Virus record (IMG/VR): IMGVR_UViG_3300031576_000009
Span: 37,721 to 101,720 of that record
Length of the DNA stretch: 64,000 bases
Strand: one strand, 5' to 3'
Source of the DNA: a virus
The translations under genes and the position numbers were made by a program. The notes below the pieces were generated by a model, which saw only the letters and a list, made by a program, of their open reading frames with translations, was not told the DNA's origin and did no database searches. This document shows, one piece after another, positions 1-38,185 of the stretch (positions are counted from its first letter, which is position 1; the number at the start of each line of letters is the position of its first letter).

Positions 1-125
1 GCCATCTCGATCCGCACGTTCATGCGATTGATCAGTTTGATCGCGATCGGCTTGCCGACGTGCTTCGCCACGCGATTGAAGTGGATCGCACGGAGTAGGT
101 TTGATCGGTGTGGTTCGTTCATCAT
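1..125 (-). CDS. hypothetical protein, 5' part only (runs off window)
   Basis: ATG overlaps upstream stop (ATGA); frame MMNEPHRSNLLRAIHF... open to window edge. Confidence 0.6.
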   Translation of the reverse strand, partial: MMNEPHRSNLLRAIHFNRVAKHVGKPIAIKLINRMNVRIEM

Positions 126-547
126 GATCCACCACCTCGACGATCACGCTCGTGTCGCTCTCGATCTGCTTTCTGCAAATTCTCCAGGCGATCCACGAAA
201 CGCTCCATGCCCAACTGGGTCCGATTGTGAAAGTCGCGATCCTGCTCTTCGTGCATCGTCTGTCGAGTTTCCTGCTTGATCATCCGACCATTCAGTTTCG
301 CCATCTCGGTCTGTACTTCACCAATCTTCATCTCGATGCCGGACAGATCGCGACGGTGATCGGCACGAAAGAGATCGAACTCCTGCTTGTTCTCCTTGCG
401 GAGCTCCAAGATCGATCCCTGCATCGCTGACTGGCTATGATCGATCTTCGAACGCAGCTGTCGCGCCATGCGCAGCATGCCGACGAAGCCCGTCGTCATG
501 AAGAACAAGATCAGCCCACTTAGGACTTCGCCCCAGTTGATCGACAT
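122..547 (-). CDS. membrane-anchored coiled-coil protein (holin/spanin-like architecture)
   Basis: Start re-called at MSINWGEVL; N-terminal TM (VLSGLILFFMTTGFVGML) then heptad-rich helix. Confidence 0.65.
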   Translation of the reverse strand: MSINWGEVLSGLILFFMTTGFVGMLRMARQLRSKIDHSQSAMQGSILELRKENKQEFDLFRADHRRDLSGIEMKIGEVQTEMAKLNGRMIKQETRQTMHEEQDRDFHNRTQLGMERFVDRLENLQKADRERHERDRRGGGS

Positions 548-782: not shown

Positions 783-1616
783 CTACCCCTGGCTCTGCCA
801 ACGATGCGCTTCCAGGCTCTTCTTCCATGCCTCGAATCCCGGTGGGAGGTCGATGTCGATCGGAAAGCGCTGGCCGCTGATCTCCATGTGCCAGCAGAAC
901 ATCCGCGTATCGACGAGGAAGGGGAACCGCTTCGTGACGAGCGACTTCCATCGCGTCTTGGCCAATGCCTTCGACTCGATGACTCTGGTACAGAAGTTCA
1001 GGTCCTCGGTGCCGACCTGCCGTGCCCACATTCCCGTCTCGGGATCACAGAACGTGGCCCGCGGCGTGATGAACACCTGACGGACCTCGCTGCGATCGGA
1101 CAGGCGAATCTTCGACGCCTTCTTCGCCATCGCTATCAGGAGCTCGCGATGAATCATGGTGAAGCCCATGCCCATTCCATCGCACCACACCTGGTCACCG
1201 AGCTTGAAGTCCCGGAACGCCCCGTTGCCGCGCCCGCGGTAGATGAGCGGCTCCGCCGGGTAGCTCTTGGTGTAGTACAGACCGGCGATGATCGGCGTGG
1301 GAGGCTTCCGCATGAACTCGTCCGCCCAGATGAACGTGTTCGGAGGACAGAGCACGTCGTGATCGAGGAAGAAGAGCCACTCCCGTCCGTTCTGCAGGAA
1401 GGTACGCACCAGCAGATTGCGCGCCTCGGCGACGCTGTAGCCCAGCGTCGAGGAAGTCAGCTGGGCCGTGTGCGTCGACTCCCAGTTGGTCGGGATAATG
1501 ATGCCCGAGTTGGCCAGATGCCACTCGTACCGAATGACGCCCGTCGTCGGGATGCAGAGATGCACCCGTGGCCGATGCGGCGTCTTGTTCACCTTCAGGT
1601 CGAGTACTTTTCCCAT
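783..1616 (-). CDS. GT-A fold glycosyltransferase (GT2-like)
   Basis: LCIPT, ARNLLV, LFFLDHD (DxD), GMGFTMIHR, TEDLNFC, WH motifs; start re-called at MGKVLD. Confidence 0.85.
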   Translation of the reverse strand: MGKVLDLKVNKTPHRPRVHLCIPTTGVIRYEWHLANSGIIIPTNWESTHTAQLTSSTLGYSVAEARNLLVRTFLQNGREWLFFLDHDVLCPPNTFIWADEFMRKPPTPIIAGLYYTKSYPAEPLIYRGRGNGAFRDFKLGDQVWCDGMGMGFTMIHRELLIAMAKKASKIRLSDRSEVRQVFITPRATFCDPETGMWARQVGTEDLNFCTRVIESKALAKTRWKSLVTKRFPFLVDTRMFCWHMEISGQRFPIDIDLPPGFEAWKKSLEAHRWQSQG

Positions 1617-1644: not shown

Positions 1645-2031
1645 TCAGTAACCTCGCCGCTGAATGCGCTGTGCGACCCGGCGTTGAATGTCCCGACCGC
1701 GCGCCCGTGCGATGAGGCCCACGCGCCGCGTCCGCGCCTGAGCAACGACCGTTCGCGCGCCGCGCGCTGCGCTGGACATACCGAACTTGAGCCCGCTCGT
1801 GATCGCCTTCGAGATGCCGAGTCGTGACGCTGCTGCGCCGCCGAGCACTCCTGCGCCCAGAACCCCAGCTGCAAGGAGGCCGTATCCGGCCACCCTCCCG
1901 GCCCGGCCGAGATCACGATATGTTGCTCCACTCTTCGTCCGCTTCGTCCCACGGCCACTGCCGCTCTTACCCTCGTTCAGCCGAGCGAACATGGCAGCGC
2001 GCTGCTGCGGAGACATACGAGTAACGGGCAT
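1645..2031 (-). CDS. Arg-rich protein with QRAAMFARL leader and one Gly-rich hydrophobic segment
   Basis: Leader shared with three nearby ORFs; YGLLAAGVLGAGVLGGAAA segment. Confidence 0.8.
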   Translation of the reverse strand: MPVTRMSPQQRAAMFARLNEGKSGSGRGTKRTKSGATYRDLGRAGRVAGYGLLAAGVLGAGVLGGAAASRLGISKAITSGLKFGMSSAARGARTVVAQARTRRVGLIARARGRDIQRRVAQRIQRRGY

Positions 2032-2033
2032 GA

Positions 2034-2621
2034 TCAAATCTCCTGTGATCCCTTCTGCGCGATATTGACCTTACGTTTCACGCCGACCTTGAGGAGCTTC
2101 TTCAAGAGCTCCGGCTCCTTCACGACACGCATGATGACTTCCATGTTGCCGACCACGTTCCATTCCAGCCGCTCCAGGAAGAGCGGCGGTGGCTCGTAAA
2201 TGCGGTACAGGATGTTCGGCTGACCGTTCTGTGGGCGTGGATCGAAGTACTGCCAGGTGGCCTCGTTGAACCCCGGTCGCGTGTGCGTCGGGTCCTGGTA
2301 GGCACCGAACGAGCCTGCGTACGGTACCGAGATCAGCACCTGACAGCCATGCTTCCCGACCCGGTAGATTTCGGCCATGACCGCGAGGAAGTTCCGCGGA
2401 TCGATGTGCTCCAGGATATGGCTGGCGAGGATCGTGATGCAGCTGTCATTCGGGATCGGCCACGGCATCTTCTCCAAATCGTGGATGAAGTCCGCTTCGG
2501 GGATCGGACGCTTGTCCATCCCAACGTAGCCCTGCTGCTTCGCCCGACCACAGCCGATGTCGAGCTGGATGCCGCCCTTCTCATCGAGCAGCTTCTGCAG
2601 TTCGTCGTGTGCGACGGCCAT
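2034..2621 (-). CDS. class I SAM-dependent methyltransferase (type 11-like)
   Basis: LDIGCG motif I, SHILEHI, EIYRV, DPTH. Confidence 0.9.
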   Translation of the reverse strand: MAVAHDELQKLLDEKGGIQLDIGCGRAKQQGYVGMDKRPIPEADFIHDLEKMPWPIPNDSCITILASHILEHIDPRNFLAVMAEIYRVGKHGCQVLISVPYAGSFGAYQDPTHTRPGFNEATWQYFDPRPQNGQPNILYRIYEPPPLFLERLEWNVVGNMEVIMRVVKEPELLKKLLKVGVKRKVNIAQKGSQEI

Positions 2622-3347
2622 TCACGTACTCCTCTGTCGACGACGATCCCGAATCCGCTGCCAGAAGGACAGCGTCGGTGACGCCGTGATGTGGTACAGT
2701 CTGCGAATCTGGTGCGCCTGGCGCGTGGCAGGCAACGCAGTCGACGCGAGCGTGCCGGCCGCGAAGAGGATCGCACCCTTCCCGGAAACCTTTGGCTGCT
2801 CCTCGATGAGCCGCGGCTGACTCCGATGGTGCTGGAGCTTGATGCCGGTGTACGCCGTACCGACAGCTGCCGCCGCGAGCGGGACGACATGCCCGAGCAG
2901 AAAGCCCATGCGGGTGCTGGTCAGATTATTGCGCGACCATATCCGCTTCGGCGTGTAGATCGGAATCGAGTGGACGAGCGCGCGTTCACCTAGAAAGCTG
3001 CTGACGCCCAGCAGGGCTTGCCCCAAGAGCGCCTTCTTCTTCGTCCGCACGGTCTCGGAGGCCGGCTTCCCCCGGAACTTCTGAGCAAAAATTGTGCCAA
3101 TTACCGGTGCGGCGGCGTAGGCGGCCACATACGGACCCCATGCCTTGGGGAACTTCCGCAGGGGGACGTGGGAGACACTCTCACGGATCGCAAAACCACC
3201 CGCCAGGAGGCTCCCAGAGCCCACCAGAGCCATTTGCACGCCGGGGGATAGCTTCCCCCACCGACGCTTCACGACACGGGCTCCTCTGCGGACCTGACGC
3301 AGCCGAGCGAACATCGCCCGCCGCTGGTCGTCCGGGATGAGCCTCAC
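2622..3347 (-). CDS. Arg-rich protein with QRRAMFARL leader, several hydrophobic segments
   Basis: GTGA coupling; leader at residues 8-16. Confidence 0.8.
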   Translation of the reverse strand: MRLIPDDQRRAMFARLRQVRRGARVVKRRWGKLSPGVQMALVGSGSLLAGGFAIRESVSHVPLRKFPKAWGPYVAAYAAAPVIGTIFAQKFRGKPASETVRTKKKALLGQALLGVSSFLGERALVHSIPIYTPKRIWSRNNLTSTRMGFLLGHVVPLAAAAVGTAYTGIKLQHHRSQPRLIEEQPKVSGKGAILFAAGTLASTALPATRQAHQIRRLYHITASPTLSFWQRIRDRRRQRST

Positions 3348-3829
3348 AGGCGGAGCCTCGCCCGGAAGAGCCGCTGGACCCGGCCACTCGACCCGATGAG
3401 CCCTCCGATGAGCTGCGGCCCGACCTTCTCGATCTTCTGACGCTCTGTGCGGCGCCCGAGGATTGTCCGGCGGATGAGGTAATCCCCAAGCACGTAGGCC
3501 GGAATCTCGACCGCGGCCGTACGCAGGATGTTTCCCGCGAGTACGCGCCCACGTACGCGTGTGCGAAAGAGCTTCGTCCCGCGGCCCACGGCCCGCGCGG
3601 AGGCGCGCACGCCGAAGCGGCCGAAGAACTTGGTCACCGGGCGTGCAGCGCCGAGCCTGCTAGTCAGGTAGCCACCCACGGCGAAGGCCGGAATCGCGAT
3701 CGCGGTCTCGGTCACGTACGGATGGCGCTGATAGAACGAACGAGCGATTGCCTGACCTCGTGCGATGGGTCGAGCTCCACGGAGCCGAGCGAAGATTGCA
3801 CGACGCTGTTGTTCGTTCTGGAAGGTCAT
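3344..3829 (-). CDS. Arg-rich protein with QRRAIFARL leader
   Basis: Start re-called at MTFQNEQ (ATGA overlap with upstream stop). Confidence 0.8.
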   Translation of the reverse strand: MTFQNEQQRRAIFARLRGARPIARGQAIARSFYQRHPYVTETAIAIPAFAVGGYLTSRLGAARPVTKFFGRFGVRASARAVGRGTKLFRTRVRGRVLAGNILRTAAVEIPAYVLGDYLIRRTILGRRTERQKIEKVGPQLIGGLIGSSGRVQRLFRARLRL

Positions 3830-4365
3830 GTGAGAAGCTTCAGTACAGGTTGGGTCTTCGCCATCCACACACGCATATTTCGCATGCGGGCCGCAGGCGT
3901 GTAGGTTGGTGCGAAGGTCCGCTTCAGCACCGATCTCATTTTCGCACTCGCTGACCACATCTTTGGGCGAACGCTTCGCGTGACAACACGAACGACGTTC
4001 CGAATACCTCCCGGCCCGAGAGCAGCGATCGGGAGTGAGGCAAGTCCGCCGACAACAAAACCAGCACTCTGCTGCATCGTCGACTTCGTGCTCTTTTGCT
4101 TATCGACATTGAATCTATTCACGCCGCTGAGCGCAAGTGCCGTACCGGTAAGGAATCGCGACATCGACATCCTGGACAACACGACTGGAGCACCGCCGCG
4201 CCGCCGCCGAGCGGACATCATGGCCCGCGCGTTCCCACGCACGAGTATTCCCGTACCGGCTCCATACATCACCCCAGCACTGAAGCCCTTGCCGAAGGGG
4301 GTTGTCCCACGCAGCCGGGCGAACATGGCGCGGCGCTGTCGGTCATCTCGTCGTATGGTTCTCAT
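3826..4365 (-). CDS. Arg-rich protein with QRRAMFARL leader
   Basis: ATGA coupling; leader at residues 10-18. Confidence 0.8.
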   Translation of the reverse strand: MRTIRRDDRQRRAMFARLRGTTPFGKGFSAGVMYGAGTGILVRGNARAMMSARRRRGGAPVVLSRMSMSRFLTGTALALSGVNRFNVDKQKSTKSTMQQSAGFVVGGLASLPIAALGPGGIRNVVRVVTRSVRPKMWSASAKMRSVLKRTFAPTYTPAARMRNMRVWMAKTQPVLKLLT

Positions 4366-4583
4366 CCGCGGCTCGTGCCTGGATTGTGGAACTTGCGGAC
4401 AGCACGGTTGATCATGGTGTAGGCGATGTCGCGTGGTTCAGCAGAACGTGCCATCCGTCGACGATGCTGCTTGCGTCGCTGCTTGTAGGCCTGCTTTTGC
4501 GCAGGGGTCATCGGCTGACGACGCCGTTGAGAAGCGATGGCTGGAGGGCGACGAGTCGTTGTGGCGGATGTGACCCGTCTCAT
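4362..4583 (-). CDS. small basic protein
   Basis: Fills operon gap, coupled to downstream gene, GGAGGG upstream. Confidence 0.65.
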   Translation of the reverse strand: MRRVTSATTTRRPPAIASQRRRQPMTPAQKQAYKQRRKQHRRRMARSAEPRDIAYTMINRAVRKFHNPGTSRG

Positions 4584-4617: not shown

Positions 4618-5178
4618 TCACGATACCCGCAGCTCGTACGTGGCGTTGACGTTCTGATCCGAGGTCCACTGCGAAGTCGGGTACGTCGCAGCGCACAGCA
4701 TGCTGCCACCCGACGAGGTGTTGAACGCGGCGATCGCGCCGATCGTCTTCGGACTGTCGGTTCCGAGATCGGCGCCGGCCCACGACGCGATCATCTGCAA
4801 GGTGCCCACCGAGGCGAGCAGCTTGCGGTTCGATCCAGTATCGGTCGTGTCGTTCAGGAGCTTGCGGCCCCCGAACTCTCCCTGCACAGAAGTATCAGCG
4901 GCGGCAGGGGCGGTCGTCTGCGTGGCGATCGCCAGGTGTGACACCGTCTTGTTGGCAGCGATGCCACCGATCGAGCGGACGATATACACGTCCTTCCCGT
5001 GATTGGTGACCTGGTTCTTGCGATAGCCGGAGTCGCCGAGAATCTCGCCGTTGCGCGCATCCGTGAGCTGCACACGCATGAAGCCACGAATGCCGACGAG
5101 ATCGACGTAACGGCCGGCACGACGGCGTGATCGCGATGCGGTGCGCCTGGATACGGGTTGCTTCTTGACACGAGCCAT
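4618..5178 (-). CDS. tail/baseplate structural protein (tail-collar/fibre-attachment-like) with Arg-rich N-terminus
   Basis: NQVTNHG...TAPAAADTSVQGE...FNTSSGGSML...VNATYEL pattern typical of phage tail-attachment proteins. Confidence 0.7.
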   Translation of the reverse strand: MARVKKQPVSRRTASRSRRRAGRYVDLVGIRGFMRVQLTDARNGEILGDSGYRKNQVTNHGKDVYIVRSIGGIAANKTVSHLAIATQTTAPAAADTSVQGEFGGRKLLNDTTDTGSNRKLLASVGTLQMIASWAGADLGTDSPKTIGAIAAFNTSSGGSMLCAATYPTSQWTSDQNVNATYELRVS

Positions 5179-5375: not shown

Positions 5376-5734
5376 CAGATTCTCGGGAGGATGAAGATTT
5401 CGATGCGCGTGTCTCCATTGGGAAACGATGACTCCAGACCGGACGGATCGTTAGCGTAGAACACGGCGAGGTATTTGCCCGGATCGTCCGTGTTGGTGAC
5501 CGCCCAGGCATAGACGAGTTGACCGCTGGTTCTCGGTAAGATGAAAGCGGCCGTCACCAGGGAGAGCGTCGACACCGTCTGGTCCTCTTTCCGCATGCTG
5601 AAGCGCGGATTCGTCCAGTCGGTGAAATTGAAGGGCAGCCCCGTGCTCTCCTTGATCACGGTCGCCACCAACACCGGGAGCCGATTGCCGGCGGTCAGAA
5701 AGGCCCGAGGAGTTCGTCCGCCGCTGATGGTCAT
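5375..5734 (-). CDS. BppU N-terminal-like baseplate Ig-fold protein
   Basis: GQLVYAW...DDPGKYLAVF...SFPN pattern. Confidence 0.7.
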   Translation of the reverse strand: MTISGGRTPRAFLTAGNRLPVLVATVIKESTGLPFNFTDWTNPRFSMRKEDQTVSTLSLVTAAFILPRTSGQLVYAWAVTNTDDPGKYLAVFYANDPSGLESSFPNGDTRIEIFILPRI

Positions 5735-6819
5735 GCCGCGAGGATTTCCATCGGTTTGTCATGGTACATCACGCTCGGCACGTCGTCGTACCAGATCACG
5801 TCCCCCAACACGTCTTGCCAGCTCACGTTCACGTGGACTTGGTCGTTCGGGATCGTACCGATCAGCATGGCAATTATATCAGCCAAACCGACGTTCTCAA
5901 CCGCCTGGATGGTGAGGACCGGTACGAATATCTTCAGGTTGTTCAGCAGGTCCTGTACCGTCATCGTCTCGGCCTTGTTGATCAGCAGCGGATTCAGGAA
6001 GAGCCGGGTGATCGCATCTTGTACCGAAACATTTTCCTGTAACCGGACGACGAGCGGGTTCACCAGGAGCTTGGTCACCACATCGGTTGGCGTCACGCTC
6101 TCCTGCAGCGCGATGCGCAGGGGATCGATGAAGAGCTTCGTCACCACATCGGCGAAGCTGAGCGTGTCGCTGACCCGGATCACGAGGCCGATCGAGATGA
6201 TCAGGAAGTCGGCGACCGTGACCGACTCCGCTCGATTGATAATGAGTGGGTTGATGAGGACGCGGACGACCGCATCCTGGAACACGGGCGAATCGGAGAC
6301 CGCGATCAGGAGCGGGCTCACGAAGAGCCTCGACACCACATCCGTCAGCGTCGCGGTATCGGAGACCCGAATGCGCAGCGGCTCGACGAAGAGCTTCAGG
6401 ACCGCATCAGCGATCGCCGGAGTCTCATTCGCCCGCACGAGGAGCGGGTTGATGATCAGCTTGACGACGGCGTCCTGGATACCCTGGTTCTCGATCGCCT
6501 GGAGCAGGAGCGGGCTCTCGAAGATGCGCACCAGGACATCTGTGATCGTCGCGGTATCGTTCGAGCGAATGATGAGTGGGGTGATGACCTCCTTCACCAG
6601 CTGATCGGTGAGGGTGGGATTCTCCATGGCCTGGACGATCAACGGATTGATCACCACCTTCACCACCATGTCGCTCGTCGTGATGGTGTCGTTGGTGCTG
6701 ATCCGCAGCGGCGAAGCGAAGAGCTTCACCAGCTGGTCCACAGCCGTCGCGTTCTCCGCGGCGTTGACTATCAACGCCGTGATGAGCTGCTGCGGAACGA
6801 AGAAGAGGAACCAGCTCAT
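5731..6819 (-). CDS. 22-aa tandem-repeat structural protein (~14 repeats)
   Basis: Units such as PLRISTNDTITTSDMVVKVVIN and PLLVRANETPAIADAVLKLFVE. Confidence 0.85.
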   Translation of the reverse strand: MSWFLFFVPQQLITALIVNAAENATAVDQLVKLFASPLRISTNDTITTSDMVVKVVINPLIVQAMENPTLTDQLVKEVITPLIIRSNDTATITDVLVRIFESPLLLQAIENQGIQDAVVKLIINPLLVRANETPAIADAVLKLFVEPLRIRVSDTATLTDVVSRLFVSPLLIAVSDSPVFQDAVVRVLINPLIINRAESVTVADFLIISIGLVIRVSDTLSFADVVTKLFIDPLRIALQESVTPTDVVTKLLVNPLVVRLQENVSVQDAITRLFLNPLLINKAETMTVQDLLNNLKIFVPVLTIQAVENVGLADIIAMLIGTIPNDQVHVNVSWQDVLGDVIWYDDVPSVMYHDKPMEILAA

Positions 6820-7627: not shown

Positions 7628-9817
7628 TCAGAACGCCGTGATGATGACGATGACGCCATCGGCGCCGTTGCCGCCGTTGTTGATCGCATCACCGCTACCC
7701 CCACCACCACCTCCGCCGGGGAAGCCGCCATTGCCACCCGCACCGACGTCGCCACCGCCTCCACCAGAACCCCCGAGGGTGCTGATTCCCGTCGCGGTCG
7801 CGCTGCCGTCCTCCACACCGCCCGCCCCAGCCCCACCGCCGACCCCACCGACACCCGCAGCGCCCGAAACGGTCCCACCACCTCCTCCACCACCGCCGTA
7901 ATTCGAGGTGCCGCCCGTGCCGGCATTGTTCGCCCCGAGGTTTCCCGCACCGCCGGCTGCACCACCGAAGTCTGCGCGACCTCCCGGATTCTGCGTTGTC
8001 GAAGCGGAAGCTGTCGTGGGCGCACCACCGCCCATACTGCCGCTCCCCTGACAGGCGTTAAGTGTCTGACAGGCGGTGTTGGAAAGGGCCGTCGGGAGAC
8101 TCTGCACACTGCCGCCTGCCCCACCATCGCCCGAGTCGTTATTCGCGCCATCCACACCAGCCGACCCGAGATTCGCAGACAGGATGACGATACCGTTGTT
8201 CGTCACCGTGCTTGAAGTCGCCGCAGACTTCGTAGCACCACCGATGCCACGGACCCCGACGCTGAGAGTCAACGTGCTTTGAAGCTCGGAGGCCAGGAAC
8301 ATCGCCCGTTGGTAGGCGCCGCCGCCGCCGCCGCCGCCCCCAGCAGCGGTCCCTGTTGTGTTCCCTGCTCCACCACGACCGCCAGCACCGAGCATCACGA
8401 TGTCGACGTGCTTCGCTCCTTGCGGCTTGACCCACGTGTCGGCCCCCCCGCCACGGAACATCTGGACGTCGGGCGTACGTGGTGTCTGTGAGATCACCTG
8501 CGCAGCGGTCGCCGTCCAGGTGTTCACCTGGGCAAGCGCGATCGTGATATAGGCTTCTGCGGTGCTCGTCACGGTGCCAGTGGTCGCACCGAGATCACCC
8601 GCAGCGGTGTAGAAGCCGGTGAGGATCATAATCCCACCACCGTCCCCATCCGCCGTGCTCGCATCGAACCGCTCAGTGAGCGTCGCGAGTTGCGCGTTCG
8701 CCTGCGACGAGTATTGCGCGCCAGTGCCTCCGTCCACCGCGTGCGCCGCAACCTGCACAATCATCAAGTTGTCGTAGGGCACACGACCACCAGGGATAGT
8801 CATGCTCGTACTTGCTGTCTCTTTGACTCCCGACGAGATGAAGATGGTCGGGTCACCGGCGGCAGCGACGCCGCGGAACGACGCGATGACGACGTAGGTA
8901 TGATCGCCCGAGTCCGCAACGGTCGGGACGGACTCCGCGCCGCTTGAGCGCTTCCAGCAGAGTGTGAGACGAGTCGTTCCTGCGGCCTTCGCAATCCCGA
9001 ATCCTGTCTGCGGACCGCGCGTTGTATAGCCAGCCGGGCACGTCGCTGGATCGTTCTCCGTCTGGATCGCCAGGAGCAGCAGATCGCCAGAGATATTCGT
9101 CGGGAGCGTGAGCCCCTGAGCCGACCCGACGGTGCCCGTCCCGCTGCCCGCTGCCCCGACGCCGATAAAACTCGATGCCGTGCAGCCGGTCGCGGTCGAT
9201 CCGCACCCTGTCCGGTACGCGCTCCCGTACGTCTCGAACGCACCGTCGCTGCCGAAGCCAAAGCGCCGCGTGTACAGCGTCGCACCCGTGATGCTCGACC
9301 ACGCCGTGCAGGTGATGCCGTAGCTCGCGGTCCACGTCTCTGAGGAGTAGCACTCCCAAGCGTACCCGCCCTCGTTCGCCGCGCCTGGTTGCGGATCACG
9401 CATGACGCCGGCACCCTGCCCAGTAATGAAGAATGTCCCCATGGTCTGTCCACTCTGGACGTTCGTCGGGTTGCGCGCGTCGTCTCCGCCACCACGGCGA
9501 AGCCCCATCACGGAGTCAGGGCCAATACTCGACGAGTGTGTCTCCAGTGCAAGACTCGCAACGTTCGAACCACCGTGCTCCACGGCATAGAAGCTCGCCG
9601 TCAGTCCCCATACGGATGGCTCCAGTGAGGACGACGTGAACATGGCTCCGTAGAAGCTATGGACGGGAACAGTCCTCCCCGACGAGTCCGCACCCATATT
9701 CCGTTGGACATACCGCGGGTAGAAGCGACCAACCGGCGAGCCCGGCATGTCCTCCGACGACTGGGCTGCGCCACGTCCGGCACACAAGGCAAACACGAGT
9801 ACGAGGACCGCACGCAT
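7628..9817 (-). CDS. Gly-rich tail-fibre-like protein with N-terminal signal peptide
   Basis: MRAVLVLVFALCAGRGAA|QS; TWVKPQGAKHVDIVMLGAGGRGG...GGNGADGVIVIIT glycine-rich fibre domain; start re-called at TGATG overlap. Confidence 0.85.
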   Translation of the reverse strand: MRAVLVLVFALCAGRGAAQSSEDMPGSPVGRFYPRYVQRNMGADSSGRTVPVHSFYGAMFTSSSLEPSVWGLTASFYAVEHGGSNVASLALETHSSSIGPDSVMGLRRGGGDDARNPTNVQSGQTMGTFFITGQGAGVMRDPQPGAANEGGYAWECYSSETWTASYGITCTAWSSITGATLYTRRFGFGSDGAFETYGSAYRTGCGSTATGCTASSFIGVGAAGSGTGTVGSAQGLTLPTNISGDLLLLAIQTENDPATCPAGYTTRGPQTGFGIAKAAGTTRLTLCWKRSSGAESVPTVADSGDHTYVVIASFRGVAAAGDPTIFISSGVKETASTSMTIPGGRVPYDNLMIVQVAAHAVDGGTGAQYSSQANAQLATLTERFDASTADGDGGGIMILTGFYTAAGDLGATTGTVTSTAEAYITIALAQVNTWTATAAQVISQTPRTPDVQMFRGGGADTWVKPQGAKHVDIVMLGAGGRGGAGNTTGTAAGGGGGGGGAYQRAMFLASELQSTLTLSVGVRGIGGATKSAATSSTVTNNGIVILSANLGSAGVDGANNDSGDGGAGGSVQSLPTALSNTACQTLNACQGSGSMGGGAPTTASASTTQNPGGRADFGGAAGGAGNLGANNAGTGGTSNYGGGGGGGGTVSGAAGVGGVGGGAGAGGVEDGSATATGISTLGGSGGGGGDVGAGGNGGFPGGGGGGGSGDAINNGGNGADGVIVIITAF

Positions 9818-10272
9818 CAGAAGGTCCCGCAAATCGCCACGACGTTGATGACCTCGCTCGTCAGTGCATTGGTGAACGTTGCTTGCAGCTCGTCACCGTT
9901 CTCAAGATAGAAGTATGGGTTACCCTGGCCGTCGATGGGCAGACCGGGCCACGCACTGCCGCTCATGAAATTCACCGCGGGAATAGCGGTAGTGAACCCG
10001 GAGCTGGCGGGCACACTGATCGTTACGCCACCCACCTTCGTCGCACCCTTCTGAATCTGGACCGTCACCGGGTTGGCGGCGTTGTCGTTCGATGTGACGT
10101 AGAGGCCGACGCACTTTACCGTGTTCGTCACGGTGCCCACGACATCGACGTAGGTGCCGGGGCTGGTAGTCATCTGCACTGCGTAGAGCTTTGGCGTGCC
10201 CAGGTAGATCGGCGCAGTGGCCGCATGCGCCAGGGTGGACAGGAACAATAGGACCAAGACGAGACGCTTCAT
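9817..10272 (-). CDS. fibre-associated beta-sandwich protein with signal peptide
   Basis: MKRLVLVLLFLSTLAHA|ATAPIY...; C-terminal LENGDELQA...INVVAICGTF. Confidence 0.8.
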   Translation of the reverse strand: MKRLVLVLLFLSTLAHAATAPIYLGTPKLYAVQMTTSPGTYVDVVGTVTNTVKCVGLYVTSNDNAANPVTVQIQKGATKVGGVTISVPASSGFTTAIPAVNFMSGSAWPGLPIDGQGNPYFYLENGDELQATFTNALTSEVINVVAICGTF

Positions 10273-19954: not shown

Positions 19955-20136
19955 CAGGAGTCGAGGACTTGATTGGGGGCTGGGCGGCATTCGTGAATGT
20001 CCATCCAACCGATCACCTCGGGGGGCGCCTGCTTGGTCTTCGCGACCTCTGCGAAGTACTGCGACAGTTTCAGGAAGCCGTCGACCTCGTCCTCGGCGAA
20101 GAAGTGGAAGTCACCACAAAAGTGTACGCGGATCAT
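19954..20136 (-). CDS. hypothetical protein
   Basis: Coupled overlaps both sides; start re-called at MIRVHF. Confidence 0.6.
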   Translation of the reverse strand: MIRVHFCGDFHFFAEDEVDGFLKLSQYFAEVAKTKQAPPEVIGWMDIHECRPAPNQVLDS

Positions 20137-21425
20137 CGTCCCAGCCTCAGCACTTCGATGTCGTCGGACCAGTCGCACATCACTCCCCAGGGATCGATCA
20201 CGACCGAGCCCTTCGGATAGGCAGACTCCAGGAAGAGACGATGCGGCATGGCGAGGACGTAGATCGCCGGCTTGTAGTAGCACTTGTCGTTGAACAAGTA
20301 GTACTTGTTGTGCCCCTCCACGTACGGATCGAAGAGCTCAGCATGGATGCCACGCTCACGGAGTAGCTCGTTCAGCAACAGGCTAGAACTGCCCACGGTG
20401 AGCCCGATGTCGGGCTTGTAGGCAAGCCCCAAGATCACCACCGGGAGCTCGGTGCGATCCACCGTCTGGGCCACGATGTTCGCGAGCCAATCAGTCTGCC
20501 GCTCCCGCGCCTTCATGATCGCATCGAAGAGGTCGAAGGAGAGATGATGCGTCCGCGCGAGGTAGCTCATCGCGATGTTGTCGCGCGGGTGGCAGCCCCC
20601 GCCGTCCCCCATGCCCGCCTTCAGATAGCGATCGCTGATCACCCGCGCAGTGGCCTGGCCGAGCACGTACGTGACCCGGTCGACGTTACCCCCGATCTTG
20701 TGAGTGATCTCCCGCAAGGTGTTCGCGAACACGATCTTCATGCCGATGAACGTGTTGTATGCGACCTTGGTGAGCTCCGCTTCCTCGATGCCCATCGTGA
20801 ACGTTGGAACACGATCAACCCCGTAAATCTTCGCGTAGAAGTCGTAATAGAAACGGCAGATTGGTTGCGGTGTGAGGTTTGGATCGTCGGTCCCGATCAG
20901 CACGAACTCGGGAAACAGGAAGTCCGGGATCGTCGTCCCCATCGCGATGAAGAACGGGTTGTAGACAGTCTCGATCCCACGATCCTGAAGGATGGGCAGA
21001 ATCTCGCGCCGTATGGTGCCCGGGAGCACCGTCGAGATAACCGCCACCATGGGCGAGACGGTATGCTTCCGTGCCGCCTCGGCGATCTGCAGCGCGGCCA
21101 CCTTCAGGAACGTGTAGTCGAAGTCTTCTCGATCGTGCGGCAGCCGCGAGATGCCCTCGAACTTCTCCTTGTGCGGCGTTTGTACCGCCACGAAGACGAG
21201 ATCACTCTGAGCAACGACATCAGCCACGGCAGGGACGACGTGGATGGTATCCCCATGCTCCAGGTACTCGTTCATCAGCGCTTCCTGGAAGGGGATGTGC
21301 TTGGCTCGCAAGTACTCCTGGACGGCCGTGTTGGTATCCGTCCCGATGACGGCGTAGCCCTCGTGCGCGATCGCCAGCGCACACGGGAGGCCCAGCTTCC
21401 CCAACCCAATGAATCCGATGTTCAC
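20133..21425 (-). CDS. UDP-glucose/GDP-mannose dehydrogenase family protein
   Basis: GLGKLG Rossmann motif, FVAVQTP, STVLPG, AELTKVAYN, GGGCHPRD catalytic Cys, LGLAYKP. Confidence 0.95.
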   Translation of the reverse strand: MNIGFIGLGKLGLPCALAIAHEGYAVIGTDTNTAVQEYLRAKHIPFQEALMNEYLEHGDTIHVVPAVADVVAQSDLVFVAVQTPHKEKFEGISRLPHDREDFDYTFLKVAALQIAEAARKHTVSPMVAVISTVLPGTIRREILPILQDRGIETVYNPFFIAMGTTIPDFLFPEFVLIGTDDPNLTPQPICRFYYDFYAKIYGVDRVPTFTMGIEEAELTKVAYNTFIGMKIVFANTLREITHKIGGNVDRVTYVLGQATARVISDRYLKAGMGDGGGCHPRDNIAMSYLARTHHLSFDLFDAIMKARERQTDWLANIVAQTVDRTELPVVILGLAYKPDIGLTVGSSSLLLNELLRERGIHAELFDPYVEGHNKYYLFNDKCYYKPAIYVLAMPHRLFLESAYPKGSVVIDPWGVMCDWSDDIEVLRLGR

Positions 21426-32041: not shown

Positions 32042-32602
32042 TCACCGACCTCGCTTGACTCGCTTCCTCTTCTTTTTGGGACGACCTTCAACAGCGCTAC
32101 CAGCAATACGTCCCTTCGTCTGTCGATACAGGCGAGCAATCCGCTTCAGCGCAGCTCGTTCATCTGACGCCGGGCCGAACTTCCTAATCTCCTCCTCGAA
32201 CCGTGGGACTTCGAGATCGTGGAGCCGCAGCTTGTACCGAATCCGACCGTGGTCGTCCTTGATGGGCAGCTGCGCCTCGTCGAGGAAGAGATCGAAGTGG
32301 TACAGCTCGTGCCACATCAGCCGGAGCCTGGCCCGAGGTCCCATGTCCTTCCACAGGTCCTTGGCCATGATCACGGCGCCATCGAAGCCGAAGAGGTCGC
32401 GCTCGCGAGCGGAGAGCTTGCGCGCTTCCCCATGTACGAAGCGCCCGGTGGTGCGGTTGAGTCGCGCGGGGGTCCGCCACCCGTACAGCAACCGCATGTG
32501 CTGCAGGTGCGGGAAGTCGGCCTTGATGACCTCAGCCGCGAGCTTCTGCAGCTCGCGGCTGTCGTCCCGCACGTACCGTGGTCGTGTTGACAGCTCGGTC
32601 AT
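32042..32602 (-). CDS. putative phage metallopeptidase
   Basis: HELYH...HDLE. Confidence 0.8.
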   Translation of the reverse strand: MTELSTRPRYVRDDSRELQKLAAEVIKADFPHLQHMRLLYGWRTPARLNRTTGRFVHGEARKLSARERDLFGFDGAVIMAKDLWKDMGPRARLRLMWHELYHFDLFLDEAQLPIKDDHGRIRYKLRLHDLEVPRFEEEIRKFGPASDERAALKRIARLYRQTKGRIAGSAVEGRPKKKRKRVKRGR

Positions 32603-34298
32603 GTACGTCTCCTTGTACCATTCGGGTTACATCCACCGCTTGCTCGATCTCACGCACGACACGACACCCTTGCAGATGTATCACGCGTGGGAAAAACGAA
32701 TCAAGCTCTGCGCGATGGGAAGTCACGAAGATGGACTCCCGACCACATCGTCCGAGTACCTGCAGGGCCTTCTGAATACCGAGCGGATCGAGGTTCTCGA
32801 ACGGCTCATCGAGGAACCAGCAGTTGGTCGCCTGGGGCATGAACTCCTGGAACGCCATCGCGATCGCGAAGTCCACGCGGCGTCGTTCTCCCCCCGAGAG
32901 GAGGGCGTACTTTCGCCCCCCGGCATAGCGAAGTCGTTGCACGAGGCGATCTCCAGCAACATCAAATAGGCAACTAAGAACACCTTTCTGTGTAGGGAGA
33001 TGACGGAGAGTATGGTCAACAGCTGCATTAAGCCGAGGGACCACACGAGCCAACGCATGAGTCTCGATCCCTCGGGAGGAGAAGCCGTCCTTCCACCAGT
33101 CCCAGTACCGTCCTCGCTCATCGAGCACCCCAACCTGTTCTTCGAGCGCCTTCCGTTCCACCTGGGCAGCCGCCAACCGCGTGCGAGCCCGTTGCAGGCT
33201 CGCGTTGATCGCCTCCACGTTCACGTTCACGTACTTCAGCTGGGCATCGATCTCCTTCAGACGCGTGTCGTACTTGTCGATCTGATCGTAGGCAGCTGTG
33301 AGCGCACGCGGGTCGATCTCCTCCGAGAGCCGCGCCAGGCGATCCTCGTACTCCCGGATGGAGCGCAGCGTGCTCTTCTTCTCCTCCTTGAGATCAGCCA
33401 GGGTCTGCTTCGTGCTCTTCTTGGTCAGCGACTGCCCGCACATCGGACAGGTCTTGGTCGCCGAGAGCTCCTCGATCCGCCGATGTGTTCCTTCGAGCAG
33501 GCTGGAGAGGAGCGCGATCTGTCGCTTGCAGTCGTCGATGTGCTCCTGCTGCGCCTCCCACTGCGATAGGCTATCCGCGAGCCGGCGCTTCCGCTTGGTG
33601 ATCTTGGTCCGCTCCTCGTCGAGAGCCTGCGCGTTGATGGTCCGCTCACGCTGCGCCCGCTTCAGGGAAGACTTCGCCGTGTCGACCGATTCGATGGCGA
33701 CCGTCTCCTGCCCCTTCGCATTCTCCAGGCGAAGGCTGAGCGCGGCGTACTCTTCGCTGATCGCCTTGGCCCGACCCTTCACATACTCGCCGGCCTGAGT
33801 GAACCGCTCGAAGCGGAAGAGCTCGCGAATGAACCGCTTCTGCTCTCGCTCAGGGAGGGTGCTGAACGGCGTGGTGAAGTTGGGGACGAGGGTGTGGATG
33901 AACTGATCGTCGGTGAGACCGAGAACGTCCCGGAGCACTTCATCGGTCCGGGCAGTGTGGCGAGCAGATACTTCGGCGCCATCAACGAACAGACGTACGC
34001 TGTTCTTCCCCACCGCATGCCCACGGTAACGTTCAACAGCGATCTGCTTGTTAAGACGCTCCAGCTCAACTCGTACCCAGGCACCGCCGTGACGGCCTTC
34101 GTCGCGGACCAGATCATCGAGAACCTCCACACGATCGATGAGCCCCTTCAGTGCCCAGCAGATCGCCGTTGGAATCGAACTCTTCCCGGAGCCGTTCGGC
34201 CCCACGACGTACGTGAGCCCACGCTCCGCGAGCGTGAAGTCCATCTTCTCCCAGCCGAGGAAGTTCTCGGCCTGTACACGCTGCAGGCGCAGCATCAC
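32532..34298 (-). CDS. Rad50/SbcC (gp46-like) ATPase
   Basis: GPNGSGKSS, zinc hook CPMC, LSGGE, FLDEPFENLD, TSH. Confidence 0.95.
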   Translation of the reverse strand: MMLRLQRVQAENFLGWEKMDFTLAERGLTYVVGPNGSGKSSIPTAICWALKGLIDRVEVLDDLVRDEGRHGGAWVRVELERLNKQIAVERYRGHAVGKNSVRLFVDGAEVSARHTARTDEVLRDVLGLTDDQFIHTLVPNFTTPFSTLPEREQKRFIRELFRFERFTQAGEYVKGRAKAISEEYAALSLRLENAKGQETVAIESVDTAKSSLKRAQRERTINAQALDEERTKITKRKRRLADSLSQWEAQQEHIDDCKRQIALLSSLLEGTHRRIEELSATKTCPMCGQSLTKKSTKQTLADLKEEKKSTLRSIREYEDRLARLSEEIDPRALTAAYDQIDKYDTRLKEIDAQLKYVNVNVEAINASLQRARTRLAAAQVERKALEEQVGVLDERGRYWDWWKDGFSSRGIETHALARVVPRLNAAVDHTLRHLPTQKGVLSCLFDVAGDRLVQRLRYAGGRKYALLSGGERRRVDFAIAMAFQEFMPQATNCWFLDEPFENLDPLGIQKALQVLGRCGRESIFVTSHRAELDSFFPRVIHLQGCRVVREIEQAVDVTRMVQGDVHDRAVNTTTVRAGRQPRAAEARG

Positions 34299-37070: not shown

Positions 37071-38185
37071 GCTGCCTCTTCGGTCCCGGTCGGTGAACGT
37101 TCGCCGTCGCTCTCTGCGATAGGTTGCTCTCCTCTCTGGCCGTAGGGGCGCATGAGCCCCTTGCGGCACGCGTAGGCGAGGAACTTCATCCGCGCCTTGT
37201 CAGGGCCACCGAGCTTCACGATAAGTGCAGGCCAGGTCACCCGCGTGCACTCCTCCTTCACCTTGCGCAGACGGAAGAGGTAGCGCGTCTTGCCCGCTGG
37301 GCTCTTCTTCCGCTCCTTCAGGATGCCGAGTTCGAGTGCGCCATCGAACAGGTCCTGGAGCTTGTCGATGCCGTTCACAAACTTCATCGTGTAGATGGCC
37401 TCGCGGAACGGCGGCGCGACCTTGTTCTTGATGATGGTCAGCCTATTGAGAAAGCCGCTCTTGTCCTCCAACCGTTTCCCTCGCTTGATCTCCACACGCA
37501 CCGTCGCGCGATAGCGCGGCACGTTCCCCCCACGCGTCTCCATCTCCGGTCCCATGTGCGCCGGCCGGTAGTTTCCGCTCCCGATCTTTGTGGAGAGCTG
37601 AGAGACGCAGACGAAGAGGCACTTGTACCGTGCCGCCATGTTCACGACCTCGGGAAGCAACAGCGCGATGTCAGCTGCCGCCCGAGCGATCGAGCTCTCC
37701 CCTGGTGCCAGGTTCTGCACCTTGCTGGACGGACGCCCGTCGAGGCTATCGAGAATCAGCGTGTGGATCGCAGTGGGGTTCTCCTTCCCGAACTCCCTGA
37801 TGTGATCTCGTGCTGAACAGAGCGCCTCTTCGAGCGTCCGCGGGTAGACCAGCTCCAGGTCTTCGAGGTTGACGCCGATCTCCTCCGCACGCTCCTCGTC
37901 GAACACGTCCTCAGTGTCGATCAGAGTCGCATGGCCACCGAGCCGTTGGGTCTCAGCGATGATGTGGTGAGAGAGCGTGCTCTTCCCGTGCCCGTCGAGA
38001 CCCATCAACTGGAACATGCGGCCTCGTGGCAGCCCTGGACGCCCGATCGCCAGATCGAGCATCAAGGACTGCGTGGAGATGCCACCAGGGACGTAGCCGA
38101 GCGCCTTGGCTTCCTTCTTCGTCGGGAAGACATCGGCGCCGTACTGCTTACGCAGTTTGTTCCGGTACTTCGTCTTAAACTTCAT
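37067..38185 (-). CDS. recA: RecA/UvsX-like recombinase
   Basis: LDLAIG-PGLPRGR, GLDGHGKST, IDTE, LDS, GG, KNKVAPPFR. Confidence 0.95.
   Translation of the reverse strand: MKFKTKYRNKLRKQYGADVFPTKKEAKALGYVPGGISTQSLMLDLAIGRPGLPRGRMFQLMGLDGHGKSTLSHHIIAETQRLGGHATLIDTEDVFDEERAEEIGVNLEDLELVYPRTLEEALCSARDHIREFGKENPTAIHTLILDSLDGRPSSKVQNLAPGESSIARAAADIALLLPEVVNMAARYKCLFVCVSQLSTKIGSGNYRPAHMGPEMETRGGNVPRYRATVRVEIKRGKRLEDKSGFLNRLTIIKNKVAPPFREAIYTMKFVNGIDKLQDLFDGALELGILKERKKSPAGKTRYLFRLRKVKEECTRVTWPALIVKLGGPDKARMKFLAYACRKGLMRPYGQRGEQPIAESDGERSPTGTEEAA

Follow-up and report, generated by a model that had tools for sequence, protein, structure and literature searches.

Several described systems load proteins into a particle by way of a short peptide or carry them inside it. 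Genes I and Z of phage Mu encode a protease with a nested scaffold, and the protease family is held in Pfam as Mu-like_Pro (PF10123). Encapsulin cargo-loading peptides are short and conserved, are attached to unrelated cargo by way of a flexible Gly/Pro/Ser linker, and are read by a shell of the HK97 fold. Proteins acting in transcription can also travel in virions, as do the N4 virion RNA polymerase, T4 Alt and the phiKZ virion RNA polymerase. The capsid-targeting sequence (CTS) of T4, when fused to staphylococcal nuclease (SNase), packages the enzyme. In T4 itself the CTS encloses internal proteins in the scaffolding core, and at the internal-protein locus of the T-even phages the CTS, which does this enclosing, is the only part conserved (PMC3012670). 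The subject here is a nine-residue peptide, QR[RA]A[MI]FARL, called the tag below, which heads several otherwise dissimilar proteins of an uncultured phage whose record, IMGVR_UViG_3300031576_000009 in IMG/VR, is a single sequence of 101,720 bases with a terminal overlap of about 195 bases. The window is the whole 64,000-nucleotide stretch analysed, positions 37,721 to 101,720 of that record.

Phage proteins that share an N-terminal address tag are already known, as a kind, from T4. New here are the motif, its appearance in each module of head polyproteins, its occurrence with two unrelated head types, and a sigma factor that carries it.

Tag-bearing genes of this phage

A six-frame regular-expression scan of the 64-kb window finds QR[RA]A[MI]FARL at four places only, each on the minus strand, and these are exactly the positions that an earlier note had read from the letters when it proposed a candidate virion-targeting signal. 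The matches head genes A to D (Table 1), and with the best start codons the Q of the tag falls at residue 8-10, in keeping with the N-terminal placement described in the note. The four members of the note's set are real, but the set is larger by a whole-genome scan: a fifth exact copy, QRRAIFARL, at genome positions 37556-37582, lies 140 bases outside the window and heads a sigma factor, and variants stand on neighbouring genes (proteins E to H). The 101.7-kb genome holds five exact copies and a sixth that is close and significant, and degenerate versions head two or three neighbouring genes; the multi-copy occurrence that the note named as support is confirmed here. The six significant copies are located at residues 4-18 of unrelated bodies, and all carriers are very basic (isoelectric point, pI, 11.5-12), with no similarity detected past the tag.

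The note had also remarked that the bodies of A to D do not align by eye, are very basic and nearly devoid of acidic residues, and carry Gly-rich hydrophobic segments, and each of these remarks holds. All-against-all BLASTP of the tag-trimmed bodies gives a best match of E=0.019 over 34 residues (A vs C), and the four appear unrelated at the BLAST level, the level at which they were compared. Their pI is 12.0 against a median of 6.4 for the genome's proteins, with R+K 27-42, D+E 3-8 and net charge +23 to +34. The segments are Gly/Ala-rich and of borderline hydrophobicity (KD19 1.3-1.6), and the bodies are predicted to be disordered. For C, an alternative GTG frame reaching 3958 is longer and overlaps D.

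The four-fold third codon positions of the tag vary among copies (CGC/CGG/CGT, GCC/GCG/GCA, CTG/CTC). This synonymous variation points to selection on the peptide and not on the DNA, and it rules out a DNA-level repeat as the source of the tag. The Met inside the tag was considered as the real start codon and rejected, since Ile or Val takes its place in several copies. A twin-arginine translocation (Tat) signal was rejected as well: R-R-A-M-F fits the n-region motif, but charged residues and no h-region come next, the weak hydrophobic segments start 25-90 residues later, and the sigma-factor carrier is cytoplasmic.

The tagged sigma factor has both Sigma70_r2 (32 bits) and Sigma70_r4 (28.5 bits) domains over cut-off and matches phrog_351 at E=1.6e-24. 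It is unusually basic and sits in the middle of a late-looking run, between a coiled-coil membrane protein and further basic proteins. The sole homologue found, P0042 (48% identity), has S-D-S-Q-R-R-A-I-F near its N-terminus. AlphaFold models the sigma factor at a pLDDT of 53, and a protease-tag-scaffold protein from another genome, described below, at 64; in both, the tag forms a short helix flanked by disordered linkers. An ESM Atlas look-up of the 393-aa protein H gave scores below 0.9, with a model pLDDT of 0.36.

Database searches with these proteins gave little. Pfam and PHROG scans of A to D and the remaining basic proteins found no match, a homologue search for B in 5.8 billion clustered proteins returned B itself only, and neither D nor a two-tag protein had a tblastn match in 50,697 phage records. 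Promoter and terminator scans stayed at chance level. With the tag itself, a profile search of the PDB gave no match at E<=10, and searches of the literature for the peptide string gave unrelated papers only; the work found on capsid targeting and Mu-like proteases concerns T4, P1 and SPN3US, not this motif. No family model, solved structure or paper was found for the motif, of which the note too knew no description.

The tag in other genomes

A tag profile of 32 positions was searched against 1.84 billion representative proteins at a cut-off of E<=1e-3. It matched 31 proteins, most with 2-5 copies. Seventy-nine foreign instances give the consensus phi-L-A-N-[AR]-G-P-[ML]-[TS]-D-[ED]-Q-R-[KR]-A-[MI]-F-A-[KR]-[LM]-[RG]-G-G-G-G, in which the Q and two Ala are invariant; each copy has L-A-N-x-G-P-M in front and a Gly-rich linker behind. 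The Asn of the junction stands at -8 to -10 in about 70% of the instances and a Met at -4 in 49%. Known domains among the 31 proteins are few and are always the Mu-like head protease. Strict N-terminal restriction, as the note had worded it, fails in these proteins: most foreign copies are internal, at the start of a module in a long protein.

An exact DNA pattern for [DE]QRKAMFAK was also run on 185,579 species, one genome each, where about 0.3 matches were expected by chance. Eight loci were found, all in assemblies of Verrucomicrobia, Luteolibacter, Lentisphaerae or Kiritimatiellia. The surroundings could be read in 12 loci, which come from about 10 genomes of Verrucomicrobiota, Lentisphaerae or Kiritimatiellia, and parts of a common architecture were seen in seven of the eight DNA-pattern loci and in four further ones; the eighth DNA-pattern locus (L026) has no in-frame tag. 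These loci are head modules of Mu-like prophages, and in the fuller ones the order is a Mu-type portal, a giant protein with several tags, a protein made of a Mu-like protease, the tag and a long coiled coil, and a tag-initial protein of 580-815 aa, followed in the loci that reach that far by a scaffold-like protein of about 180 aa. At the capsid position of one locus (L025) is an open reading frame (ORF) of about 310 aa, which has no profile match and is named by position alone. The 580-815-aa protein has an SNase domain in several loci, and the large tag-initial proteins of three Verrucomicrobiota-type prophages (L025, L028 and L030) have this domain.

Within those bacterial genomes of 3-6 Mb, tag-profile matches occur in prophage head modules only, and clustered matches were present in 12 of 401 sampled genomes of the phylum Verrucomicrobiota. 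Every other genome with readable context places the tag in the head-morphogenesis module, in agreement with the virion setting suggested in the note. The note's idea of a modular element on unrelated bodies is likewise borne out, by the basic proteins and the sigma factor here and by SNase, protease and coiled-coil scaffold elsewhere. Distant homologues (22-30% identity) of this phage's SU10-type capsid protein occur in 43 of the 401 Verrucomicrobiota genomes, a count made in that phylum only, from which nothing firm follows for the host.

When a profile built from the foreign instances alone was run against all six frames of the present genome, it gave six matches with E from 7.5e-7 to 1.8e-3. 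These are B, C, D, the sigma factor, the 88-aa protein E and A, each at a gene start. Two further matches rank next without being significant (E 2-3); they fall on the N-termini of the basic proteins H (393 aa) and G (246 aa). By this comparison the link between the tag of this phage and the foreign tag is statistical, beyond visual resemblance.

Accessory nature of the tag genes

Only two relatives were found in IMG/VR by the large terminase (TerL), at 61-65% identity, and the metagenome relatives found by TerL are short contigs only. The nearest relative whose synteny could be read (L024, TerL 61%) has no tag gene: its 186-aa gene is followed by an unannotated ORF of 174 aa, then by methyltransferase, glycosyltransferase and TerL. 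Since L024 keeps the flanking genes without the tag genes, the latter are accessory insertions. The other relative (L023) has one tag gene, MRFTSAAQRKAVMASLRG, elsewhere in its genome, after head-completion genes.

A proposed address for the head interior

The reading we prefer, which we would put a little short of an even chance, is that the tag ([ST]-[DE]-x-Q-R-[RK]-A-[MIV]-[FM]-A-[RK]-[LM]) is a portable mark for proteins of the head interior, analogous and not homologous to the T4 CTS. It builds on the tag's modularity, its statistical significance, its several copies per genome, its position at gene and module starts, and its head-module context in other genomes; that tagged proteins are docked, packaged and ejected is what we infer. 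The tag helix would dock to a component of head assembly (scaffold core, portal or inner shell) during procapsid assembly, or it would bundle with further copies of itself, and the tethered cargo would thereby be enclosed in the head. The cargo would stay with the packaged DNA, which we propose as an explanation of its extreme positive charge, and would probably be released into the cell along with the DNA.

The spacing of the tag is relevant here. Among 12 stand-alone tagged genes, six have their initiator Met 7 residues before the Q, where a polyprotein would have the residue next after the conserved Asn of L-A-N. The match suggests that cutting takes place at this point in the polyproteins and that having a free N-terminus at such a distance is important.

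Several observations weigh against a head address. The head proteins of this phage share no BLAST-level homologue with the tag-bearing Mu-like prophages, so any receptor specific to the capsid would be either generic or not homologous between the two. The tag would be read by a structurally conserved element (portal or shell interior), by the tag itself plus one adaptor, or by a partner outside the particle. The scaffold protein here is untagged, and neither a whole-genome PF10123 search (E<=1) nor PHROG scans of the head module detected a head protease. The tag genes are upstream of the lysis and terminase genes, whereas in the Mu-like cases the tag lies between portal and capsid. The helix modelled by AlphaFold is isolated and of low confidence, with no confident docking, and the Arg-rich bodies with their weakly hydrophobic segments are also compatible with a role at membranes or on nucleic acid outside the virion. 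Co-folding of the tag (44 aa, 13-row alignment) with the capsid and scaffold proteins gave a score of 0.00, which counts neither for nor against binding.

A partner outside the particle is an explanation in its own right, unlikely in our judgement but deserving some weight. The tag would address proteins to nucleic acid or to some factor of Verrucomicrobiota-type host cells, such as a chaperone, RNA polymerase, or a membrane or secretion component, and its place in prophage head modules would reflect ejected effectors that act after entry or be incidental. That two phage lineages have the tag and no BLAST-detectable homologues between their head modules favours such a partner. The restriction of all eight exact DNA-pattern matches to one bacterial group points the same way, as does the form of the peptide, an Arg-flanked hydrophobic helix, and one carrier is a sigma factor, which must meet the host RNA polymerase. 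Yet in the host genomes the tag is never on cellular proteins, and what is invariant is Q, A and A (small residues, one helix face) and not the basic residues, which argues against plain nucleic-acid binding.

The earlier note had also allowed for a shared docking or processing site, which fits as well: in the Mu-like polyproteins the tag always comes after a conserved L-A-N-x-G junction. On a processing explanation, which seems to us quite unlikely, the tag would be a P' side recognition element or exosite of a head-maturation protease, or a mark for internal translation starts, and would set the polyprotein cuts; in this phage it would be a remnant or would serve an unrecognised protease. 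L-A-N-[AR]-G-P-[ML] does precede the tag at a fixed distance in the 79 foreign instances, the tag recurs at every module boundary and also follows the Mu-like protease domain itself, and the frequent Met at -4 is comparable to the nested I/Z genes of Mu. The part that fits poorly is this phage, where profile searches detect neither PF10123 nor another head protease and where each of the six tags stands at a true gene start, without an L-A-N junction. A pure cleavage signal would also leave unexplained why a conserved helix and flexible linker occur on stand-alone genes and are kept in the sigma-factor homologue.

Very unlikely, finally, is an ordinary family of fast-diverging paralogues or mobile genes that keeps its N-terminus for its own fold or expression and resembles the Mu-like proteins by ancestry without shared addressing: genes A to D are adjacent, alike in composition and in their Gly/Ala hydrophobic segments, weakly matched between A and C, and predicted to have disordered bodies that could diverge fast, but the sigma factor, SNase proteins, protease and coiled-coil scaffold cannot be their paralogues, and the tag is conserved far beyond all else across genomes of 46-69% GC.

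Proteins riding in phage heads are the first weapons to reach the cell and are hard to recognise by sequence, and a tag common to unrelated cargo would give a sequence rule to find them in phages of Verrucomicrobiota and relatives, which are poorly known and had no match in the 50,697 deposited phage records. The cargo includes a nuclease and possibly a sigma factor, and the tag would be a natural handle to load foreign proteins into capsids. Its use by two different head types raises the question of which receptor common to both would read it. In a bolder form, which we regard as quite doubtful, the tag would be portable between unrelated phage lineages of Verrucomicrobiota-type hosts and would here load the sigma factor and protamine-like proteins into the capsid, the sigma factor being injected with the DNA and seizing the host RNA polymerase at entry. 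On this form, sequence alone would suffice to predict which proteins of such phages are packaged and injected.

Genomic setting and other features

The note had placed the tag genes in a late operon after baseplate-like genes. The baseplate identity of the genes upstream of the cluster found no profile match. Genes for lysozyme, terminase, portal, scaffold and capsid are downstream of the cluster on the same strand. The order after the run of protamine-like proteins is lysozyme, terminase (with an intein), portal, scaffold, SU10-type major capsid and neck proteins. Table 1 lists the tagged genes and their neighbours.

Table 1. Tagged genes, their tags and neighbouring features (window positions, unless given as genome positions)
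Feature	Tag or variant	Position	Strand	Details
Protein A		1645..2031	(-)	128 aa; ATG at 2031; AGGAG 9 nt upstream
Tag of A	QRAAMFARL	1978-2004	(-)	Q = residue 10; foreign-tag profile E=1.8e-3
Protein B		2622..3347	(-)	241 aa; GTG start; two weakly hydrophobic Gly/Ala segments
Tag of B	QRRAMFARL	3300-3326	(-)	Q = residue 8; foreign-tag profile E=7.5e-7
Protein C		3344..3829	(-)	161 aa; ATG at 3829; 161-aa form on record is P0009
Tag of C	QRRAIFARL	3782-3808	(-)	Q = residue 8; foreign-tag profile E=3.6e-6
Protein D		3826..4365	(-)	179 aa; pI 12.0; net charge +32
Tag of D	QRRAMFARL	4312-4338	(-)	Q = residue 10; foreign-tag profile 21.9 bits, E=9e-6
Sigma factor		genome 36995-37597 (L003:17995-18597)	(-)	200 aa; pI 11.8; net charge +26
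Protein E	SDEQRRAVMASI	genome 36539-36805	same strand	88 aa; N-terminal variant; sixth significant tag
Protein F	NQQQRAAVAIAL	genome 35846-36535	same strand	229 aa; N-terminal variant
Protein G	TRQQWRAIFAKA	genome 34391-35131	same strand	246 aa; N-terminal variant
Protein H	TAAQWRAIWAKS	genome 33213-34394	same strand	393 aa; N-terminal variant
Methyltransferase, SAM-dependent		2034..2621	(-)	untagged; between B and A; phrog_6636 E=9.5e-10; kept in tag-less L024
Glycosyltransferase-like		783..1616	(-)	untagged; probable start 1616; in L024 directly upstream of TerL
73-aa basic protein		4362..4583	(-)	pI 12; net charge +19; no clear tag; same basic run
186-aa conserved protein		4618..5178	(-)	upstream border of the inserted tag genes; homologue in L024
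Window edge		1..147	(-)	untranslated upstream part of the sigma-factor frame only; coding part beyond the window

Further genes of the window were sampled. A 362-aa protein at 5731-6819 (-) consists of protein-level repeats of about 24 residues, NPL[IL][IV]...D..VK[LV], with no family match, and Tandem Repeats Finder detects no repeat in its DNA. The 734-aa Gly-rich protein at 7628-9832 (-), probably a fibre or surface protein, begins with a signal-like N-terminus and matches Gly_rich_2 weakly, below the Pfam cut-off. Of the genes sampled in the remaining window, just two are strongly recognisable; they encode a UDP-glucose dehydrogenase at 20133-21425 (-) (phrog_9148, E=4e-79) and an SbcC-like nuclease subunit at 32532-34298 (-) (phrog_77, E=1e-69).

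The large terminase (L003:6488-8869) contains an intein (Intein_splicing, E=3.9e-10) that the relatives L023 and L024 do not have. A weaker intein-splicing match, below the Pfam cut-off, is found in a 1137-aa multi-domain glycosyltransferase/methyltransferase (L002:15407-18820). Past the neck genes are two giant frames, L002:5532-12944 and L002:643-4716, of 2470 and 1357 aa; the latter has no Pfam match.

The first 195 or so bases of the record come again at its end, where a poly-A run is longer by one A, and the record is classed as linear and 79% complete. Because of this terminal recurrence the genome is probably complete, and circularly permuted or terminally redundant. Among sequencing runs, one DNA run from a cave metagenome, the probable source, contains the sequence, and no RNA runs are listed.

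Comparison with known systems

The likeness to Mu lies in the prophage proteins, which are composed of a protease domain, a linker and a coiled-coil scaffold part, with the tag at the protease-scaffold boundary, where Mu starts Z. In Mu itself a resemblance is seen by eye alone (PMNETLRKLLARLG or ITDEQATAALTAL); aligning the tag profile to Mu gpI with hhalign gave no support for homology, and MAFFT aligned the tag to ITDEQATAAL of Mu, not to the start of Z. The PF10123 domain, moreover, is in the foreign carriers only, and A to D have no Pfam match.

Encapsulin cargo resembles the tagged proteins in having a short conserved peptide and a flexible linker on unrelated bodies. The encapsulin peptides are usually C-terminal and differ in sequence.

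T4 offers a close parallel. The CTS of IPI-III and Alt is a short N-terminal peptide that is the sole shared part of diverse, fast-changing small basic proteins at a variable locus, and the accessory tag-gene locus of this phage is like the hypervariable internal-protein locus of the T-even phages. The prophage proteins that join the tag to SNase are a natural counterpart of the engineered CTS-nuclease fusions. Unlike the CTS, to which it has no sequence resemblance, the tag is basic and has no L/I-x-E site of the sort cut by a gp21-type protease; it also occurs internally, at the starts of polyprotein modules and on the protease-scaffold fusion; and it is common to two unrelated head types.

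We know of no described packaged sigma factor. If the tag is a head address, the sigma factor of this phage would be like the packaged proteins of N4, T4 and phiKZ: it would arrive with the DNA and redirect host transcription at once.

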